The translations under genes were made by a program, and so were the position numbers. Source: a virus (taxonomy: Duplodnaviria > Heunggongvirae > Uroviricota > Caudoviricetes). From it: a DNA stretch of 35,429 nt. Positions 1-34,729 of this stretch are shown piece by piece. The notes beneath the pieces are model-generated. The model saw nothing but the letters and a program-made list of their open reading frames with translations. It ran no database searches and had not been told where the DNA came from. Every line of letters starts with the position of its first letter. Positions within the stretch are counted from its first letter, which is position 1. Location of the stretch: the IMG/VR virus record IMGVR_UViG_2531839330_000011, one strand, 5' to 3'.

Positions 1-1002
1 TTACCCTCTATTGTCAAAAGGGTTCAATTCAACAGCAGCCTCTAAATGACCTGGAGCAAAATGCGCATAACGCATAGTCATTTTTATATCGCTATGCCCC
101 AGTATTTTTTGCAACACAAGAATATTTCCGCCCCGCATCATAAAATGACTGGCAAACGTGTGACGTAGCACATGAGTTAATTGCCCATCAGGAAGCTCGA
201 TCTTCGCTCTCTTAATTGCAGCGTCAAAAGCCTCATAACATGGTGAAAATAGCGCTCCTCGTTTTTTGGGAAGCATAGCCTGCAATTGAGGTGAAATCGG
301 TACAGTGCGGTTCTTCTTTCCTTTAGTTTTAACAAATGTGATTCGACCGGGCAGTACTTGAGATTGCTTTAATCCTTCTGCTTCACTCCACCGAGCACCA
401 GTCGCAAGCCCAATACGGACAACAACCCCCAAATCTTTATTCCGTGACTCATCACACGCAATCAGAAGGCGTTCAATCTCATCTACATACAGAAACGCCA
501 GTTCCTTTTCTTCCTCACGAAACTTGCGAATACCAGTCAGGGGGTTTTCACCAGACCACTCCCCAAGGCGCTTCAGTTCGGCAAAAACAGCATGTAGATA
601 TGACTGCTCGCGATTAACGGTTGCTTCACTAAGTTTTTTCTTCCCCTTGGGATTCCACTCTCCTGATAACCTTCTTTCCCGATAAGTGGCAAACATATTT
701 TTGTCAAACTGAGAAGCAAATGGATCTCCCAGCCTGGAACAAATCGCCTCAAGTTTGACTTTGCGCTCTGCACCAGAGGACAAGGTTTTACCGTACATCT
801 CAAACCAACGAGCAATCAACTCAGAAAGACGAGGACCAGAACCATCTTGAAACTCGTCTCCAACTCTACTATTCATTAAACGGCGCTCATAAGAGAGCGC
901 CTCACTTTTTGTCGCAAACTGTTTACGAATGCGTTTTCCCGATGCCCCGTAGGGATAACATTCGCAAAGCCATTTACCTGATGGAATCTTACGAACCGAC
1001 AT
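1..1002 (-). CDS. int: Phage integrase, tyrosine recombinase (P2 Int-like), 333 aa
   Basis: C-terminal catalytic region with conserved R...HxxR...Y pattern (LRHTFASH...MTMRYAHF) and size match P2-type integrases. Start codon at 1002, stop at window position 1. Confidence 0.93.
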   Translation of the reverse strand: MSVRKIPSGKWLCECYPYGASGKRIRKQFATKSEALSYERRLMNSRVGDEFQDGSGPRLSELIARWFEMYGKTLSSGAERKVKLEAICSRLGDPFASQFDKNMFATYRERRLSGEWNPKGKKKLSEATVNREQSYLHAVFAELKRLGEWSGENPLTGIRKFREEEKELAFLYVDEIERLLIACDESRNKDLGVVVRIGLATGARWSEAEGLKQSQVLPGRITFVKTKGKKNRTVPISPQLQAMLPKKRGALFSPCYEAFDAAIKRAKIELPDGQLTHVLRHTFASHFMMRGGNILVLQKILGHSDIKMTMRYAHFAPGHLEAAVELNPFDNRG

Positions 1003-1007
1003 TTTAG

Positions 1008-1355
1008 TTACTTATCACATAAATCAAATGCAGCCTTAGTGACATCCCCCAGGCTCTTTTTTAACCCTGGGGCGGCATCATTATCTAGCCAAAATGGATT
1101 ATTGTTATCTAACGGTAACGCACCAAATGTTTTACCTTTTATTCGAGCCAAACCTGTAAGTGCATATAACTTATTATCGTCAAAATTCATCACATAAGGA
1201 TTACCATCAAGACACTGTAATTGAACCTCATCAGTATTAAATGGCCATACCCCATTGAAACTCTCACGTTCAATAGTTTTAAAAGGCATTGCGACGGCGG
1301 AAAAAGAAAACATAGATAAAAAAGTAACTAATAGTTGAACCTTTTTTACTTTCAT
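1008..1355 (-). CDS. Small secreted protein (N-terminal signal peptide, two Cys), unknown function; lysogenic-operon cargo
   Basis: 115 aa. N-terminal hydrophobic signal (MKVKKVQLLVTFLSMFSFSAVA). AT-rich codon usage unlike flanking phage genes. RBS-like GAGGT upstream of the ATG at 1355. Tightly packed between int and the upstream gene. Confidence 0.6.
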   Translation of the reverse strand: MKVKKVQLLVTFLSMFSFSAVAMPFKTIERESFNGVWPFNTDEVQLQCLDGNPYVMNFDDNKLYALTGLARIKGKTFGALPLDNNNPFWLDNDAAPGLKKSLGDVTKAAFDLCDK

Positions 1356-1384
1356 ATCATTACCTCAATTTAGCTCAAGTAAGA

Positions 1385-2035
1385 TTACAAATTAAAAAAC
1401 GCCCTAGAAATGACACCGCCTACCAAAACCCCTACGCAGATAAAGAATATTATTTCTTTTGGATAAAGTCGGATTAATTCTGAAGCACGAAGTCGGACTT
1501 CTGGTAAGGTCGAACTCTCTGTGTGGCTTGATGCCGATTGTTGCTCTAACCACGACAATGCAGACTGTAACTGAGAACGAGTAAGATCGTTTAAACGTCC
1601 TGTACCGAAATTGATATGGCAATACCGCAGAAGTTTTTGTCGAAGTCCACAGTCTTCACTGTTACGTAGTAATAAACTTACAAGAGCCTTACAGGCATCA
1701 TGATCTTTACATCGCTCAAGCATTGCATGCAGAAAACTCTCCGCTGTTTTATATTGATTTACTGTCATATCATCAATACCAGCTACACCAATCTCCGCAT
1801 GTACTTTTTGCCAAATAATAAACGCTTCAGTATTGCTAGCTTCTGCAATAGCAGCAACCAAGCTATTTAGCTCCTTACGCTGAGCCTTAAGCAAAGGGCG
1901 ATCGTCATCATCATTATTCGAAGGGATTGCGATATTGACGGTATGAGAACCATCATATCGCTCTATCTGAATATTCTTTTCGTGAAAATCACGCCCAGCA
2001 ACGCGATTGTTTGAACCGTTTGAGTTGACGGCCAT
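1385..2035 (-). CDS. C-terminally membrane-anchored protein of unknown function; lysogenic-operon cargo
   Basis: 216 aa. Strong AGGGAGG RBS 12 nt after the repressor stop. Single C-terminal hydrophobic helix (IIFFICVGVLVGGVISRAFF). N-terminus carries SNNRVAGRDF, a near-copy of the repressor C-terminal motif GNNRIAGRDY. AT-rich. Confidence 0.65.
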   Translation of the reverse strand: MAVNSNGSNNRVAGRDFHEKNIQIERYDGSHTVNIAIPSNNDDDDRPLLKAQRKELNSLVAAIAEASNTEAFIIWQKVHAEIGVAGIDDMTVNQYKTAESFLHAMLERCKDHDACKALVSLLLRNSEDCGLRQKLLRYCHINFGTGRLNDLTRSQLQSALSWLEQQSASSHTESSTLPEVRLRASELIRLYPKEIIFFICVGVLVGGVISRAFFNL

Positions 2036-2047
2036 GTCACCTCCCTA

Positions 2048-2455
2048 CTATCCCCTACCCTTAGTTTCGTTATAGTCACGACCAGCGATACGGTTATTAC
2101 CACCAGAAATATTTAACTCACGTCCTGATGGCTGAGTTTCCTTTTCACTGATCGCACCTTTTAAAGCCCCAATCACCGCGTTTTTCACATCTAACGAAGC
2201 TGCTCGAAAGCGAGTAATCAACTCCTGCTCATCATCGTTATAAGTTTCAGGTGAGTGAATTCCCAACACAACATACTGAACATCAAGGCCAAAACGAGAC
2301 AGCGCTGCCAAATACGCAGCATCAGGAAAGCTATCTCCTTTCTCATATCTAAGCTGAGTTAGCTTTTTGACTCCACCAATGTCGCTCATGGCAACTTGAC
2401 TAAGTCCCAATCTTTCCCTTTCCTCACGCAACCGCTGACCAATATCATTTTTCAT
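2048..2455 (-). CDS. Prophage repressor, XRE/Cro-C1 type helix-turn-helix (CI/C-like immunity repressor)
   Basis: N-terminal HTH (IGQRLREERERLGLSQVAMSDIGGVKKLTQLRYEKG). Divergent from cox-like genes. Start taken at the internal Met (ATG 2455) because the longer ORF would overlap the divergent gene start. Confidence 0.8.
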   Translation of the reverse strand: MKNDIGQRLREERERLGLSQVAMSDIGGVKKLTQLRYEKGDSFPDAAYLAALSRFGLDVQYVVLGIHSPETYNDDEQELITRFRAASLDVKNAVIGALKGAISEKETQPSGRELNISGGNNRIAGRDYNETKGRG

Positions 2456-2465
2456 ACAAAAAACC

Positions 2466-2531
2466 TTGACAGGTATCTTTTTTGATACCAAAATGATTTC
2501 ACGAGCTATTAGATGATCACAATATACCACT
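2466..2531 (+). promoter_or_regulatory. Lysis-lysogeny switch region: TTGACA -35 hexamer (2466..2471) immediately followed by perfect palindrome GGTATC-N6-GATACC (2472..2489), a candidate operator and early rightward promoter
   Basis: Read directly from the sequence. Sits in the 76-bp divergent interval between the repressor and the first rightward gene. Confidence 0.5.
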
Positions 2532-2738
2532 ATGAAACAAGTTCTTCACGATACCAGATCACGCATTCCGCGTAACCCCGCCACAGGTCCAAGACTGGCA
2601 CTTCGGCTGTCCCTCGAGGAGCGAGCCGTCATTGATGAAATGGCAGCTAAAGAACAACGCTCATCCTCTAACATGGCGCGCATGATCTTCCTTCGCGGCC
2701 TAGAGCTAACCCAGAAAGAACAAAACAAATCTTCCTGA
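2532..2738 (+). CDS. Small ribbon-helix-helix-like DNA-binding protein (Cro/Apl-like early regulator candidate)
   Basis: 68 aa. Segment RLALRLSLEERAVIDEMAAKEQRSSSNMARMIF resembles RHH/MobC-type motifs. First gene divergent from the repressor. Confidence 0.5.
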   Translation: MKQVLHDTRSRIPRNPATGPRLALRLSLEERAVIDEMAAKEQRSSSNMARMIFLRGLELTQKEQNKSS

Positions 2739-2754
2739 TCAGGAGGCTAGTGGG

Positions 2755-2958
2755 ATGTCAGGTATAACCATCAATATCAATGTGAATGCCCCCTATGTAT
2801 CCCTGCAGAAATATGCAGAGATAACAGGTATCCCTCTTAATACATGCAAAAAGATGTTGGCTGACGGTCGAATTATTATCCGCCCCAAACGCGCCAAAAT
2901 GGAAAAGCCTGAAGTAAACCTTGTGGCGATGTTAAAAGACGCTTTGGCTAACAGCTAA
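2755..2958 (+). CDS. cox: Cox/excisionase-like HTH protein
   Basis: 67 aa. APYVSLQKYAEITGIPLNTCKKMLADGRIIIRP resembles the P2 Cox HTH region (IPYQEFAKLIGKSTGAVRRMIDKGKLPVI, recalled from memory). Position matches P2 cox. Confidence 0.6.
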   Translation: MSGITININVNAPYVSLQKYAEITGIPLNTCKKMLADGRIIIRPKRAKMEKPEVNLVAMLKDALANS

Positions 2959-2979
2959 AACAATGAACAGAGCACCATC

Positions 2980-3330
2980 ATGAAAAAAAACGCTAATAAT
3001 CCATACTCCAAATTTCGTAATAGCGTAGAACGCCATGTACACCACGTCGCTACCAGTGCATCACGTAGTAACAGTCGCTATAACCTGAACGAGACGCACG
3101 CAACACCGGATGGCCACGCTGTAAAACAAATCGGCGAGCATGCCTGGCTGATTGAGAAAGCTGGAATCGTGGTCCACAAATGCCCACGCAATCCGTTTAC
3201 CGGAAACCGCATTTTTGCATTGAACTGCGGCGACAATCACTTCGGGCAGGATTTCACATTATACGAAGCACTTCGCACGGTTGATCGTCTGCTTCGCGGG
3301 CAAAGTTTTATTAAACAGGCTGATTTATAA
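2980..3330 (+). CDS. Hypothetical early protein
   Basis: 116-aa ORF in the early rightward operon. No recognisable motif. Confidence 0.45.
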   Translation: MKKNANNPYSKFRNSVERHVHHVATSASRSNSRYNLNETHATPDGHAVKQIGEHAWLIEKAGIVVHKCPRNPFTGNRIFALNCGDNHFGQDFTLYEALRTVDRLLRGQSFIKQADL

Positions 3331-3340
3331 CAGGTGCTTT

Positions 3341-3619
3341 ATGACCAAAGAGCATGCACAAGGTGTATTTATCCGTTTTATTGATTTTCGCGGTGAACTG
3401 TTATTACGCGCATCAGCCATTGACGGAGTTGTTCCATCCGAAAAAAACGCAGCTACTTACGTTTATCTGAACGGTACGCGCCTGACTGTGGAGCTTCCGT
3501 ACCAGACCGTACGAGAAATCATTAGCGAAGCTGAAAAGGCACGTCAGGTTAATGGCGATGAACCCTATATCGAAATTATTTGTATGGATTCAGAAGCTGA
3601 AATTCAGAAAGCAGATTAA
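3341..3619 (+). CDS. Hypothetical early protein
   Basis: ORF 3281..3619 trimmed to the internal ATG at 3341 (MTKEHAQ...) to avoid overlapping the upstream gene. 92 aa. Confidence 0.45.
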   Translation: MTKEHAQGVFIRFIDFRGELLLRASAIDGVVPSEKNAATYVYLNGTRLTVELPYQTVREIISEAEKARQVNGDEPYIEIICMDSEAEIQKAD

Positions 3620-3630
3620 AGGGCGTTGCG

Positions 3631-3873
3631 ATGGGCAAAGAATATAAAACTCTCATTAACAAAGCACTTGAACGATTTTATTTTCGCTTAAGTGCATCAG
3701 GCGCTCATGCTGAACATGCAGCCCGTGACTCATTGACCAGGGCAATCCGGAGTTTGTATGACGTTGCTTTTTACGCTGATGATCTGGATGCACTTAACGA
3801 ACTTTCCGAGCTGATCTGTGCCGCAGAATGCGGGGAACACATTGAACCGTATAAGCTGGGGAATATCGCATGA
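3631..3873 (+). CDS. Hypothetical early protein
   Basis: 80-aa ORF with compact spacing to neighbours. Confidence 0.45.
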   Translation: MGKEYKTLINKALERFYFRLSASGAHAEHAARDSLTRAIRSLYDVAFYADDLDALNELSELICAAECGEHIEPYKLGNIA

Positions 3874-3983
3874 GTATATTTATCTCATGGCTTGTTCTGA
3901 TTATTTCGGTGGCCTGCGCCATTGGGATTATGCGAATTATTCATTCAGTAAAAAAGATTGAACGCTTTTTTACTGACAAATAA
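3870..3983 (+). CDS. Small hydrophobic membrane peptide (37 aa), translationally coupled by ATGA overlap
   Basis: ATG at 3870 overlaps the TGA stop of the upstream ORF. Translation MSIFISWLVLIISVACAIGIMRIIHSVKKIERFFTDK has one predicted TM helix and a basic tail. Not in the supplied ORF track because it is under 60 aa. Confidence 0.4.
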   Translation: MSIFISWLVLIISVACAIGIMRIIHSVKKIERFFTDK

Positions 3984-4075
3984 CAGCTTAAACAAAACAC
4001 CAGATTAAACCCGAAAACCTGAAAACTATCCGCATTCGCGGAGGTATTCGCACACGTAAATAACGGAGATATAAA

Positions 4076-4492
4076 ATGAACGCAAAAGAAAAAAATATTA
4101 TCAATACATTAAAAATAGTGTCAGCAGAGCAAGACAAGCTGTCCAGGGCAGCCCAGAAAGATAATCAACATATGGCAGCGCTTTACGCACTGACCATCGC
4201 AATAGCCGCCTCTGAAGCAGCCAAAGTTATTGAGGAACAGAGCAAAGAAATCGACACTCTTAAAACACAGTCAACAGTTGCAGCCATGAATCCGTCCAGC
4301 ATTGGACGCTGCATTTATATTCTTGGTTCAGCAATGATGCTGCAATACACCATTATTGCCGAACTGCACGGCAAATACCTGATAACGCCTTACCACACAA
4401 AAGAGTCAGAGCTTCTGACAAATCTCCGCCTGATAGAACGCTCTCAAGCTGTATTCATTGATGACGCGCAATGTGCCGTATTTAACGCATAG
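4076..4492 (+). CDS. Hypothetical protein, AT-rich (moron-like)
   Basis: 138-aa ORF. Preceded by a 90-bp non-coding gap and GGAG RBS. Visibly more AT-rich than the surrounding phage genes. Confidence 0.5.
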   Translation: MNAKEKNIINTLKIVSAEQDKLSRAAQKDNQHMAALYALTIAIAASEAAKVIEEQSKEIDTLKTQSTVAAMNPSSIGRCIYILGSAMMLQYTIIAELHGKYLITPYHTKESELLTNLRLIERSQAVFIDDAQCAVFNA

Positions 4493-5289: not shown

Positions 5290-5600
5290 ATGCACACACA
5301 AAAAAACCGCTTGCCATGCCTCAATCGGTCAGGTTACATTTCCGCTGCAGCTCATAAAACGGGTGCCGGGATTCTCAACCCGATACAGAGCAAAGCGCAT
5401 AACCGCGCAAGCGGTTTTTTTGTGCGTACTGTATTGCCACGTCTTTTTCGCGTCAGAATTATGGCGGGGCGTACGGGGCCGACTTCGGTCGGGCCGGATT
5501 CTTTGCTCTCCGGTGTTGAGAACCCTGTACGTCTCGCCACCCCGAGATTCTCAACTCTGGATGGTGAGTTATTTCTATCACCGAGCAAAGAGGCCACACC
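5290..5600 (+). other. Highly structured non-coding segment (candidate ncRNA or terminator/regulatory element)
   Basis: 15-bp perfect inverted repeat AAAAAAACCGCTTGC (5300..5314) / GCAAGCGGTTTTTTT (5407..5421). Local hairpin CCGC-GCAA-GCGG followed by T7. Hairpin GGCCGAC-TTCG-GTCGGGCC near 5478..5497. Repeated ATTCTCAAC motifs at about 5380 and 5548 with an inverted copy near 5514. ORFs called across this interval lack protein-like composition. Confidence 0.35.
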
Positions 5601-5831
5601 ATGGCAGACCGCAAACAGCACCGCACTATCGCGGAGCGTCGTCACATCCAGACTGAAATCAACCACAGACTTTCCCGCGCATCACGCGTCGCGCAAATCA
5701 TGCACATCAATATGCTGCATGAGCGCAGCCACGCACTATCAAACATTTATTCCGCCTCTGTTTTCAGCTATCTGGCGGATGATCTGCACGAGCTTCAACA
5801 GCTCATCCAGCAGCAAAACAAACTCCATTAA
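5601..5831 (+). CDS. Hypothetical small basic protein
   Basis: 76-aa ORF with AGAGG RBS 8 nt upstream. Confidence 0.5.
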   Translation: MADRKQHRTIAERRHIQTEINHRLSRASRVAQIMHINMLHERSHALSNIYSASVFSYLADDLHELQQLIQQQNKLH

Positions 5832-5903
5832 TTCCTGTTCCGGGCCTTTCCTGCACCTTGCGGCGGGAGGCCTTCGCACATCTGTAACAAGAGGATTGCC
5901 GCA

Positions 5904-6269
5904 ATGATTCTCGCCAACGACTTTCTTGAATACCTGCTCAACACAGAGCGTGATCTTGCCGCTCGCGTACGTGATCGTTATGACATGTATCTGAAATCCC
6001 TGCCTGTACCGCAGCTCGCTGACGGAAAAATTGTTATTGATGGTCGCTACATGATTGACAGCCACGAGGGGAATTACAGGCTTTACCGCATTGAAGCCGG
6101 CACCCCGTCCGTTATTGGCATTTACCAGCGCCCATCCTCTGCGATCGTCGATGTGATTGCCGACAGCATCCGCATCACACACCACCATGCCGACACAGAA
6201 GACACTGTGCTGGAGATTCAGCGGCTGGCTGCCGTTTGCCGTGACACTCTGAACGGAATGACGAAGTAA
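5904..6269 (+). CDS. Hypothetical protein immediately upstream of replication gene A
   Basis: 121-aa ORF. Sits at the position P2 gene B occupies, but no similarity recognised. Confidence 0.5.
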   Translation: MILANDFLEYLLNTERDLAARVRDRYDMYLKSLPVPQLADGKIVIDGRYMIDSHEGNYRLYRIEAGTPSVIGIYQRPSSAIVDVIADSIRITHHHADTEDTVLEIQRLAAVCRDTLNGMTK

Positions 6270-6275
6270 ATCAGT

Positions 6276-9098
6276 ATGACGACAGAGTACATCAGGGACT
6301 GGCAACAACCGCGCCACGCAGTAGGACGTGAAGGAACGGAGATCCCCGCACCTGAATCCGCACTTTCCTCCTGGCTGGATGCCTACCGGGCAGAGAACGA
6401 ACGCCGCCAGGAAATGGCTGATGCGGCGTTCTCCGCCACACCGCTGGGCAACCTGATTAATAAAAGCCTGGACGCACAGGAAAAACAGGACAAAACCATC
6501 ACACTGGCCAGAGAAGCCAGAAAACAGGCACGCGGCGCGGTGGATGAAGCCATGGCCTCGCTGCGCCTGCTGCCATCCTATCTGCGCGATCCGCTTATTC
6601 GCCACCTCTCCTTCCTGCGCAAAAAACAGGAATCTGACCGCCAGAAAGGTAAAAAGAACCAGCAGGCTGAACGCTACGCGCGCGGGACCCTGCGCAAAAT
6701 ATTCGAACGTCTGGACCGCACCGACCACCGCTGGCTGACACCGGGTTATCGCTCCCTTGCCGGACGCGAACGCCTGGATGATTTGCTTTACCTCCCGCAG
6801 CTCAACAAGCACCAGATACAGACGCTGGCCACCATGACGGCGGCGATGTTCAGCAGCACCTTCGAAAAACTCTGCGATGGCTTTGGCGCGACCGATGGCG
6901 AGCTGACCATGGATGTAACGCTGAAGGCGTATCAGATGCTGGCCCGCATGGCGTTACACCTGCACATCATGCCTCCACATTATGACGCACTGACAACAGA
7001 TAAAGACCGGAGGAACGAACCGGACACGGAGCTGCTGCCGGGCGCAATCCTTCGCCTGACCTGTGCGGAATGGTGGAAACGCAAACTGTGGCTGTTACGT
7101 TGCGAGTGGAGAGAAGAACAACTCCGCGCCGCCTGTCTGGTTTCCAGAAAAACATCGCCTTATCTGAGCCAGGACGCGTTAAGCGAGTTTCGCGCACAGC
7201 GCGAGAAAACACGCGATTTCCTGAAAAGTTTCATGCTGGAAAATGAAGACGGGTTCACGATTGATCTCGAGACAGTGTATTACGCGGGAGTAAGTAACCC
7301 GGTTCACCGTAAGGCAGAAATGATGGCCACCATGAAGGGGCTGGAACTTCTGGCCGAAGCCCGTGGCGACAAAGCGGTGTTTCTGACTGTCACCTGCCCG
7401 TCAAAATACCACGCCACAACAGAGAACGGTCATCCGAATCCCAGATGGAACGGGGCCACCATGCGCGACTCCAGCGATTACCTGGTTAACACGTTTTTTG
7501 CGGCGGTCCGCAAAAAACTGAACCGCGACGGTCTTCGCTGGTATGGCATCCGCACGGGGGAGCCTCACCATGACGGCACCGTGCACTGGCATATGATGGT
7601 CTTTGCACATCCGGACGAGATTGAAACCATCGTGTCCCACGTCTGCGATATTGCCATTCAGGAAGACCGCCACGAGCTGGGCGATGACATAACTCCGCGT
7701 TTTAAGGCGGAGTACGTCGACGGCTCAAAAGGCACACCAACCAGCTACATCGCCACCTACATCGGAAAGAACCTGGACAGCCGCGCCGTGGATGGCATCG
7801 ACCCGAAAACGGGCAAGCCACGCGTTGACCACGAAACCGGAAAATTAATGGCCGAGAGCGTGGAACGCGCCATCGGCTGGGCGCGCCTTCACCGGGTCCG
7901 CCAGTTCCAGTTCTTTGGTATCCCCTCCCGTCAGGTGTGGCGTGAACTGCGCCGCCTTGCCAGCCAGATGGCACGCAACCCGGAAGGCCCACAACGGCTG
8001 AAAGATGACGCAATGGACGCGGTACTCGCTGCCGCTGATGCCGGATGTTTTGCCACCTACATTGAAAAACAGGGTGGCGTGCTTGTTCCACGCAAGGACT
8101 ACCTGATTCGCACCGCCTACGACCTCGCAGATGAGCTGAACGATTACGGCGAACAGAGCGTACAGATTTACGGGATCTGGTCACCACTCATCGGGGAATC
8201 CTCCCGTGTGTGCACGCATCCGGATAACTGGAAGCTGGTAAGACGCAAACCGGAAGCGGAAGACAGCGCCCGCGAAAATGGTTTTGACCTTCAGGGCGGC
8301 CCTGCCGCCCCTTGGACTCGTGGCAATAACTGTCCCCGTGTACAGGAAACGAACAACAACGGGACAGAACAGCCGGAAGAACGGCCAGCACCGTGGCCGC
8401 AGCTCCCTGATGGCGTTGAAGTGAACGAATGGATGCGCTCACTGAAACGGCACGAACGCCGGGCGCTGATGCGTTCGCTTCGTGACAAACAGGCAAAAAA
8501 CAGCAGTGATGAAATGCAGAGCTGGACACAGAGCCGCAAACAGCAGCGGCCTTTGCCTGATAACCACGAATTACTCGCTAAAGAATGGCGGGAATCTGCC
8601 GAATCTCTCGGCCTGCATATCGGTGAACAGCAGATGCAGCACCTGTTACGGGGCGGCAGCCTGTACGTTGACGGCAGCATCATTGCACCGCAGGGATTTG
8701 AAATTGTACGCAAACCGGATCCCAGCCCGGACAGCCGAATCACGCAGCTCTGGCAGCGCCTGAGCCGTAATCACGGCGTAAGCAGCACAGAGATCCGCCA
8801 TAACCCGGTCGCCAGCTATCTGGAACAACTGGGGGCATCAGACCCCGAAGCCGCCGCACGTCTGGCATCCACACTTCAGCAGGACCAGAACACCATGAAA
8901 ACCCCCGTTACCGTGCTTTCTGACATGCTGCGCGCCATCCGTGACGCAGAGCACGCACAGAGAATCAGTGAAACCACTGAACGCGCCCACCGCAAAGCAG
9001 ACCTGCTGCGGGGTAGCCTGACCAATGGAAACAAAAAACAGACAGAAACGGGACTCACAAATCCCGTAAATGAGCAAAAAACGCGCCGCGATATATGA
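6276..9098 (+). CDS. A: Rolling-circle replication initiator endonuclease (P2 gpA family), 940 aa
   Basis: HUH motif (GTVHWHMMVF) followed by a paired-tyrosine motif (TSYIATYIGKN), typical of P2 A / phiX174 A superfamily relaxases. Synteny after the early operon. Longer than P2 gpA as I recall it. Confidence 0.88.
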   Translation: MTTEYIRDWQQPRHAVGREGTEIPAPESALSSWLDAYRAENERRQEMADAAFSATPLGNLINKSLDAQEKQDKTITLAREARKQARGAVDEAMASLRLLPSYLRDPLIRHLSFLRKKQESDRQKGKKNQQAERYARGTLRKIFERLDRTDHRWLTPGYRSLAGRERLDDLLYLPQLNKHQIQTLATMTAAMFSSTFEKLCDGFGATDGELTMDVTLKAYQMLARMALHLHIMPPHYDALTTDKDRRNEPDTELLPGAILRLTCAEWWKRKLWLLRCEWREEQLRAACLVSRKTSPYLSQDALSEFRAQREKTRDFLKSFMLENEDGFTIDLETVYYAGVSNPVHRKAEMMATMKGLELLAEARGDKAVFLTVTCPSKYHATTENGHPNPRWNGATMRDSSDYLVNTFFAAVRKKLNRDGLRWYGIRTGEPHHDGTVHWHMMVFAHPDEIETIVSHVCDIAIQEDRHELGDDITPRFKAEYVDGSKGTPTSYIATYIGKNLDSRAVDGIDPKTGKPRVDHETGKLMAESVERAIGWARLHRVRQFQFFGIPSRQVWRELRRLASQMARNPEGPQRLKDDAMDAVLAAADAGCFATYIEKQGGVLVPRKDYLIRTAYDLADELNDYGEQSVQIYGIWSPLIGESSRVCTHPDNWKLVRRKPEAEDSARENGFDLQGGPAAPWTRGNNCPRVQETNNNGTEQPEERPAPWPQLPDGVEVNEWMRSLKRHERRALMRSLRDKQAKNSSDEMQSWTQSRKQQRPLPDNHELLAKEWRESAESLGLHIGEQQMQHLLRGGSLYVDGSIIAPQGFEIVRKPDPSPDSRITQLWQRLSRNHGVSSTEIRHNPVASYLEQLGASDPEAAARLASTLQQDQNTMKTPVTVLSDMLRAIRDAEHAQRISETTERAHRKADLLRGSLTNGNKKQTETGLTNPVNEQKTRRDI

Positions 9099-34426: not shown

Positions 34427-34513
34427 TGGTACCCGGAGCGGGACTTGAACCCGCACAGCGCGAACGCCGAGGGATTTTAAATCCCTTGTGTCTACCGATT
34501 CCACCATCCGGGC
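34427..34513 (-). tRNA. leuZ: tRNA-Leu (anticodon UAA)
   Basis: Reverse complement GCCCGGATGGTGGAATCGGTAGACACAAGGGATTTAAAATCCCTCGGCG...GGGTACCA matches E. coli leuZ as recalled, with long variable arm and encoded CCA. Confidence 0.93.
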
Positions 34514-34525
34514 TCGGGAAGAAAG

Positions 34526-34599
34526 TGGAGGCGCGTTCCGGAGTCGAACCGGACTAGACGGATTTGCAATCCGCTACATAACCGCTTTGTTAACGCGCC
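34526..34599 (-). tRNA. cysT: tRNA-Cys (anticodon GCA)
   Basis: Reverse complement GGCGCGTTAACAAAGCGGTTATGTAGCGGATTGCAAATCCGTCTAGTCCGGTTCGACTCCGGAACGCGCCTCCA matches E. coli cysT as recalled. Confidence 0.93.
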
Positions 34600-34653
34600 A
34601 AATTCTTCAGGCCTTTCAGCCAGACATCCGCTTGAGGCCGATGTCTTTTAAAC

Positions 34654-34729
<76 letters not shown>

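Follow-up and report, generated by a model that had tools for sequence, protein, structure and literature searches.

A conserved 37-codon gene for a predicted membrane peptide overlaps the DUF4754 gene in P88-like prophages of Escherichia coli

Results and discussion

The analysed DNA, a stretch of 35,429 nucleotides referred to as the window, carries at positions 3870..3983 (+ strand, stop codon included) a 37-codon ORF that overlaps the end of the preceding DUF4754 gene by 4 nt. This ORF is a protein-coding gene under purifying selection, and within the P2 family it is a fixed component of the P88-like (Xuanwuvirus) branch. It starts with ATG, and its deduced translation is MSIFISWLVLIISVACAIGIMRIIHSVKKIERFFTDK. 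We are highly confident that it represents a real translated membrane peptide. As an overall explanation, it is proposed that the ORF encodes a translationally coupled early membrane peptide acting together with DUF4754, for which an even chance is assumed.

Public annotation

The earlier note had described the peptide as unannotated. This is correct for the ORF track with a 60-aa cutoff that its reader was given, but not for public records. In phage P88, gp07 (YP_009113050.1, 'membrane protein') is the same ORF with the same 4-nt overlap, and tblastn showed an identity of 94.6% to it over residues 1-37. The counterpart in vB_EcoM-569R5 (URC09552.1) is labelled 'putative membrane protein', RefSeq/PGAP lists WP_000021655.1 (identical to the window peptide) and WP_000021647.1 as 'hypothetical protein', and in UniRef, where the name is 'Prophage membrane protein', the exact peptide sequence is found on at least 1000 contigs. 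P88 gp07 and its RefSeq and UniRef equivalents are the same gene, with an identity of 94.6-100%, a length of 37 aa, the same overlap and the same place in the genome; they are known from annotation alone, with no family model assigned. A profile search of the peptide against PHROGs, NCBIfam, PADLOC and PDB gave no family match, and the sole match in Pfam was PET117 at a sub-threshold E of 0.19. A literature search for DUF4754, DUF4761, the peptide accessions and the peptide sequence returned no mention. The gene is not discussed in the papers on P88 and phiSM, and the peptide is not listed in one EHEC translatome supplement. Altogether, public annotation already includes this product, either as a hypothetical protein or under the name of a 'prophage membrane' protein, and the peptide is an uncharacterised small phage-encoded membrane protein.

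Overlap with the DUF4754 gene and signals for translational coupling

The upstream DUF4754 gene (3631..3873, +) encodes a helical protein of 80 aa (Pfam PF15946, E 8.7e-54; phrog_2549) and ends with a TGA at 3871-3873. This stop codon and the ATG of the peptide are both contained in the four nucleotides ATGA (3870..3873, +), a start/stop overlap that can be read directly from the sequence and is regarded as a translational coupling signal. A comparison with 129 DUF4754-carrying loci, gathered from IMG/VR, genomes and phages, showed that the ATGA is retained in 128 of them. The overlap is present in four lineages, the upstream proteins of which are only 31-50% identical to one another. Furthermore, the 3' end of the DUF4754 gene contains an SD-like GGGGA (3858..3862, +) that precedes the ATG by 7 nt. 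Its duplex with the anti-SD amounts to -5.5 kcal/mol, which is similar to the range of the neighbouring genes. In the diverged lineages the corresponding purine run reads GAGGAG, GAGGTGG or AGGAGGAAG, although the encoded C-terminal residues of DUF4754 differ. The proposal of the earlier note that the ATGA overlap couples the 37-codon ORF to the preceding gene is thus supported by the conservation of both the overlap and the SD-like element.

Two kinds of fusion between the peptide and DUF4754 were considered and rejected. A programmed -1 frameshift would meet a TAA (3852-3854) in the peptide frame five codons before the ATG, and the sequence between this TAA and the ATG differs among lineages, while the ATG is invariant. 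The second kind comprises 'DUF4754' proteins of 103-128 aa, which could pass for natural fusions with the peptide. These are read-throughs caused by indels, mostly from Logan assemblies, and are assembly artefacts (P0002, P0004, P0005, P0011, P0016, P0017, P0022, P0032, P0034, P0038 and P0052); the frame that they enter is either the non-coding +2 frame or that of the peptide.

Conservation and selection at the protein level

Most of the 129 loci encode the 37-aa form. In about nine, the tail is frameshifted after residue 33, which results in a 45-aa form, and another three loci are truncated. Among 104 unique peptides, M1, S6, W7, I23, I24 and K28 are invariant and L10, I11, A17, G19, I20, R22, I30 and E31 are nearly invariant. 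The small-residue positions S13, A17 and G19 of the helix are conserved, the replacements observed are largely conservative (I/M/L, V/I/A, H/N), and the tail motif K-x-I-E-x-[FL]-F-T-G is kept in the 37-aa form as well as in a 41-aa form.

For the determination of the selective constraint, pairwise Nei-Gojobori values were calculated with 87 unique intact sequences. The peptide frame showed a dN/dS of 0.26, with 0.20 for codons 1-33 and a relaxed value of 0.55 for the last four codons, compared to 1.43 and 0.99 in the other two + frames. For DUF4754, a dN/dS of 0.094 was obtained. The sole other low value, 0.31, was found in the antisense frame and can be explained by the wobble positions that this frame shares with the peptide ORF, so that a mirror effect is expected. 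Competing ORFs on the DNA of the peptide, one of 42 aa in antisense and one of 47 aa in the +2 frame, are intact in only 64 and 69 of 97 unique sequences, respectively. A Fitch reconstruction on an NJ tree resulted in 74 synonymous and 71 non-synonymous changes in the peptide frame, at an expected synonymous fraction of 0.23 (binomial p = 6.7e-14), and in no synonymous excess in the alternative frames (p > 0.8); these counts ignore recombination and homoplasy inflates the totals, but the contrast between the frames is unaffected, since the same substitutions are used in every frame. Conservation at the protein level in homologous regions, which had been suggested as a check on the ORF, is therefore observed, the dN/dS of 0.26 standing against 1.0-1.4 in the other + frames.

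More distant relatives of the peptide were sought by a HMMER scan of 1.84 billion protein representatives. Nine relatives were found, all belonging to one family and 41-59 aa in length, including 41-aa forms with identities of 64% and 57% and a 59-aa form with 47%. Their contigs are E. coli P2-like prophages, and each of the distant peptide genes is located 3' of an 80-aa DUF4754 or DUF4754-like gene with an ATGA overlap. Compared to the window peptide gene, the distant relatives differ least at second codon positions (3-7 of 33) and most at third positions (16-20). The distant peptides are 46-65% identical to the window peptide, whereas their 80-aa upstream partners reach only 31-40%. Across these lineages the peptide is better conserved than DUF4754, a pattern that fits a conserved host target at least as well as a mutual interaction of the two proteins.

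These data also bear on the possibility that the ORF serves coupling in a sequence-independent manner, so that translation itself matters, for example against Rho-dependent polarity before the following spacer of 92 nt, and the peptide is functionless. The location as the last gene of a block, with a long variable spacer following it, the relaxed last four codons and the tolerance of frameshifted 45-aa tails would agree with such a role. It is hardly reconcilable with the dN/dS of 0.20 in codons 1-33, with the invariance of S6, W7, I23, I24 and K28, and with a cross-lineage identity that exceeds that of the neighbouring protein. This explanation is considered very improbable.

Predicted membrane helix and cytoplasmic tail

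The Kyte-Doolittle 19-residue mean (KD19) of the peptide reaches a maximum of 2.68. The six frames of the window contain 171 ORFs with an ATG start and a length of 25-60 aa. Just two of these reach a KD19 of at least 2.2, and the peptide at 3870..3983 ranks highest. AlphaFold2 returned a single helix comprising residues 2-35 (pLDDT 89.9). Based on the KD19, the AlphaFold2 helix and the conservative hydrophobic replacements, codons 3-24 (3876..3941, +) are predicted to form a transmembrane helix, IFISWLVLIISVACAIGIMRII. The following codons 25-37 (3942..3980, +) comprise the predicted cytoplasmic tail, RIIHSVKKIERFFTDK, which has a net charge of +3 and is marked by conserved residues in the motif K-x-I-E-x-[FL]-F-T-G/D. 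The description given in the earlier note, one hydrophobic helix followed by a basic tail, agrees with all three of these determinations, namely the KD19, the tail charge and the single helix of AlphaFold2.

Most likely, the peptide is a bitopic inner-membrane protein with an N-out/C-in orientation, as predicted by the positive-inside rule, the charge bias being modest in some variants. In this orientation the N-terminus of two residues is predicted to be periplasmic, Trp7 and Arg22 are placed at the outer and the inner interface, respectively, and the motif-bearing tail is predicted to comprise 13-17 residues in the cytoplasm.

The hydrophobicity is also of relevance for the question whether the ORF is a gene at all. 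A chance origin would be compatible with its small size, as T-rich frames can produce short hydrophobic ORFs at random. On the other hand, all results on conservation and selection are contrary to a chance ORF, the hydrophobicity is the highest of the 171 small ORFs of the window, and both the start codon and the SD-like run are retained. A chance ORF is strongly disfavoured, its probability being close to negligible.

Three other types of membrane-associated product were rejected. Neither a lipoprotein nor a cleaved signal peptide fits the replacement of Cys16 by Met in 12 of the 104 variants, the variable position 15 and an N-terminus that comprises no basic residue. A holin does not fit the location of the gene, which belongs to the rightward early block, with the Cox-like gene before it and gpA after it, and is not found beside an endolysin in a late lysis cassette.

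Genomic context

The window represents a P2-family (P88-like) E. coli prophage. The integrase gene (1..1002, -) and an HTH repressor gene (about 2051..2455, -) are encoded on the minus strand. The genes of the rightward block are tightly packed and include the Cox-like gene (2755..2958), the DUF4761 gene (2980..3330), the phrog_3800 gene (3341..3619), DUF4754 and the peptide gene and, after further genes, the gene for the gpA-type replication endonuclease (6276..9098). A candidate early promoter, TTGACA-17-CAAAAT (2466..2494, +), was identified by a consensus match of 10/12 in the stretch that separates the repressor gene from the rightward operon. Its position would correspond to that of Pe in P2 and pR in 186 in the annotated records, where the early operons are given as Pe: cox ... 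A and pR: apl, cII, fil, dhr ... A. By synteny with these records, we infer that the rightward block with the peptide gene is an early lytic operon.

Downstream of the peptide gene, an intergenic spacer of 92 nt (3984..4075) was found to vary more than any other stretch (83 of 92 columns) and to contain a mosaic junction. The homology of P88-type phages to the window ends at about 4056. A search for a terminator or a structured RNA on the + strand of this spacer gave no candidate (z = -0.76). The spacer is followed by the phrog_9338 gene (4076..4492, +), an accessory gene at the mosaic junction, which is intact in the window with 138 aa. In an otherwise identical E. coli O6:H16 genome the same gene is annotated as frameshifted.

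Distribution and linkage to DUF4754

The region of the window shows 84-92% DNA identity to P88-like phages (Peduoviridae, Xuanwuvirus). The peptide was found in all 14 phage records with a gpA at least 79% identical to that of the window; the records of this Xuanwuvirus clade include P88, P884B11, 520873, 503458, phiSM, 569R5, 705R2, Chuche, PhiR44_2 and Entero_P88. In the next relatives by gpA (about 43% identical; Fels-2-like and Klebsiella phages), no homologue of the peptide was detectable. Among complete E. coli genomes, the stretch of DUF4754, peptide and spacer is present in 1386 of 5426, about a quarter, with O157:H7 strains among the carriers at an identity of 98.9%. The region also occurs in Salmonella, Shigella, Citrobacter and E. 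albertii.

In the 121 loci with enough flanking sequence, the peptide accompanies DUF4754 in 120. Of the flanking genes, phrog_3800 on the upstream side occurs in 115 of these loci and phrog_9338 on the downstream side in just 61. Since the pair stays linked while the flanking genes vary and the spacer acts as a mosaic breakpoint, DUF4754 and the peptide can be regarded as a fixed unit.

The single DUF4754 locus lacking the peptide originates from E. coli O111:H2 08-3342 (L005, NZ_CP077551.1, 1743-2743). Here, an IS3 transposase replaces the sequence from the peptide gene through to a truncated gpA in a degraded prophage. A scan of genome contigs for DUF4754 loci resulted in two loci, one of which is labelled Vagococcus. 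On this contig (L006, NZ_JBQPOM010000071.1, Vagococcus sp. WN89Y), the DUF4754 gene at 3001-3240 is 99% identical to that of an E. coli prophage, and the assignment to the Gram-positive Vagococcus is probably due to contamination or a mislabelled assembly.

Proposed mechanism and alternative explanations

Altogether, the following course of events is proposed. After derepression, a rightward early transcript would comprise the Cox-like gene, DUF4761 and DUF4754 and continue towards gpA. Ribosomes terminating DUF4754 translation would re-initiate at the overlapping ATG, aided by the SD-like purine run, and as a consequence of this re-initiation DUF4754 and the peptide would be made together. 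Both may then work as a two-protein unit at the inner membrane. One option would be that the tail of the peptide docks the soluble helical DUF4754 protein at the membrane; another would be that the two proteins both engage a conserved host membrane component. For DUF4754, AlphaFold2 predicted helices at residues 4-48 and 52-66 (pLDDT 88.5), and a search of this fold against PDB and BFVD gave generic helical bundles alone, none of them at E <= 0.001.

Joint action with DUF4754 is favoured, as the two genes always stay together even though the DNA around them is reshuffled. Based on the invariant linkage and the coupling, the chance that the peptide works jointly with DUF4754 is estimated as nearly even, or at best even.

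Another explanation, along the lines of the earlier note, would be that the peptide is an autonomous host-takeover inhibitor or toxin, which alone blocks the divisome, a transporter or a protease, or depolarises the membrane, and that DUF4754 is merely a neighbour supplying ribosomes. A small single-helix peptide in an early operon would suit this role, and the conserved S13, A17 and G19 are compatible with helix-helix packing. Some room for this idea is left by the higher conservation of the peptide compared to its partner, which would be expected across lineages if the peptide had a conserved host membrane target. There is moreover a precedent in phage 186, the early region of which carries, according to the record annotation, the cell-division inhibitor fil and the host replication inhibitor dhr. 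As in the case of the peptide gene, these are small accessory early lytic genes of a P2-family phage located between a Cox/Apl-type regulator and the replication gene. The reading frames of fil and dhr overlap, and an intergenic region comes after them, a layout comparable to that found here. In 186 the pair is then followed by the annotated terminator tR1, in contrast to the peptide gene, downstream of which no terminator-like structure was found on the + strand.

The likeness to 186 does not extend to the proteins. Judged by sequence, neither Fil (75 aa) nor Dhr (66 aa) has the form of a membrane peptide with a single helix. A BLASTP comparison of the peptide with Fil gave no alignment at E <= 100, and the resemblance of the Fil tail IIRIVHFVIKGVK to IMRIIHSVKKIER in the peptide was, in view of this missing alignment, dismissed as chance. 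Dhr, which was judged from its translated sequence without BLASTP, shows neither a hydrophobic helix nor an evident resemblance to the peptide. Furthermore, searches of Pfam, NCBIfam, PHROGs, PADLOC and PDB showed no match of the peptide to families of toxins or inhibitors.

A comparison with type I toxins leads to a divided picture. These toxins (Hok, Ldr, TisB, Ibs and others) are about 20-50 aa long, combine a single hydrophobic helix with a charged end and are often prophage-borne (PMC12648545). The peptide is likewise small and hydrophobic, with a single helix and a KD19 of 2.68. In contrast to the toxin genes, that of the peptide lacks its own promoter and leader and is part of a long phage operon, in which it is translationally coupled. 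The models for Hok/Gef, Ldr, TisB, Ibs, ShoB and other toxins in Pfam and NCBIfam did not match the peptide. With regard to an antisense RNA antitoxin, a consensus-only scan, which makes this a weak negative, gave no promoter-like site on the minus strand overlapping 3870-3983, and Rfam showed no RNA there. The linkage to DUF4754 in 120 of 121 loci, maintained through extensive mosaicism, would be needless for an autonomous factor, and this strict linkage suggests a two-protein unit rather than an autonomous toxin. Altogether, an autonomous inhibitor is regarded as possible but doubtful.

Small inner-membrane proteins of other phages, such as T4 Imm and HK97 gp15, block the entry of DNA. As a lead, this precedent raises the possibility that the peptide is a superinfection-exclusion or injection-blocking factor, made early in the lytic cycle or at a low level from the prophage, which bars the DNA of secondary phages from entry. 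The wide distribution of the gene in E. coli prophages, with the region present in 1386 of 5426 complete genomes, would agree with such a function. Its position is different from what would be expected, since the gene is part of a repressor-controlled rightward operon and not in the P2-type positions for lysogenic conversion (old/tin region). A search for an internal promoter gave none above chance level, and there was no match in PADLOC. An exclusion function is considered unlikely.

Another class of proteins for comparison comprises the small bacterial inner-membrane regulatory proteins that bind larger partners (PMC12648545). The peptide resembles them in size, in its single transmembrane helix, in the conserved small-residue positions and in the short conserved cytoplasmic tail, and these common features suggest, by analogy, protein-protein contact rather than catalysis. 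Contrary to those regulators, the peptide is phage-encoded and early-lytic, and no homology to them was found.

In a more specific version, which is regarded as rather improbable, the two genes would form a dedicated two-component early module of Xuanwuvirus phages, in which the transmembrane peptide binds a conserved host inner-membrane protein and recruits, or is regulated by, the fast-evolving soluble DUF4754. The host target of this module could be, for example, a component of the divisome, of transport, of quality control or of defence. If this were true, the module would be a new phage device for host takeover or anti-defence, found in roughly one in four E. coli genomes, O157:H7 among them.

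The peptide is among the most widespread uncharacterised small membrane proteins of E. coli prophages. With 37 aa for the peptide and 80 aa for its partner, both encoded by inducible phages (P88, phiSM), the pair offers a clean and cheap target for functional studies. Identifying its target could reveal a new interaction between phage and host that takes place early and at the inner membrane, and two or three DUF families, namely DUF4754 and perhaps DUF4761, would thereby be assigned functions. No current concept is challenged by these findings.

Further observations in the window

A number of observations concern other parts of the window. Between the promoter candidate and the Cox-like gene, an Arc-like ORF of 68 aa (2532..2738, +) was assigned to the PHROG Arc-like repressor family with E = 1.6e-27. 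In the RefSeq annotation of an identical genome this ORF is absent, and a hypothetical protein of 45 aa, WP_001673482.1, is given on the opposite strand (2546-2683, -) instead, which is likely a strand mis-call in the public annotation.

The interval between integrase and repressor (1008-2035, -) comprises two cargo-like genes with no match in PADLOC, one encoding a DUF2511 protein of 115 aa with a signal-peptide-like N-terminus and the other a protein of 216 aa with a C-terminal hydrophobic segment. This interval may be a position for lysogenic conversion.

On the minus strand, across the start of the gene at 4076, the stretch 4124-4029 contains a promoter-like site, CTGACA-16-GATAAT, and a GC hairpin followed by TAGTTTTCAG. 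A short antisense RNA at this place was rejected, the matches being at chance level and the fold showing a z of 0.11.

Further downstream, but still within the early region, Rfam identified an isrK Hfq-binding RNA (5347-5421, +; 59.5 bits) and, next to it, a C4 antisense RNA (5457-5544, +; 78.5 bits). Since both are located inside the 205-aa ORF at 5290..5907, this ORF is probably no gene. The combination of isrK and C4 suggests an RNA-based immunity or antirepressor control of the P1/P7 type in a P2-family prophage. Finally, a cluster of three tRNA genes (34430-34729, -) is located close to where the window ends on the right and probably belongs to the host flank or to the attachment-site region of the prophage.
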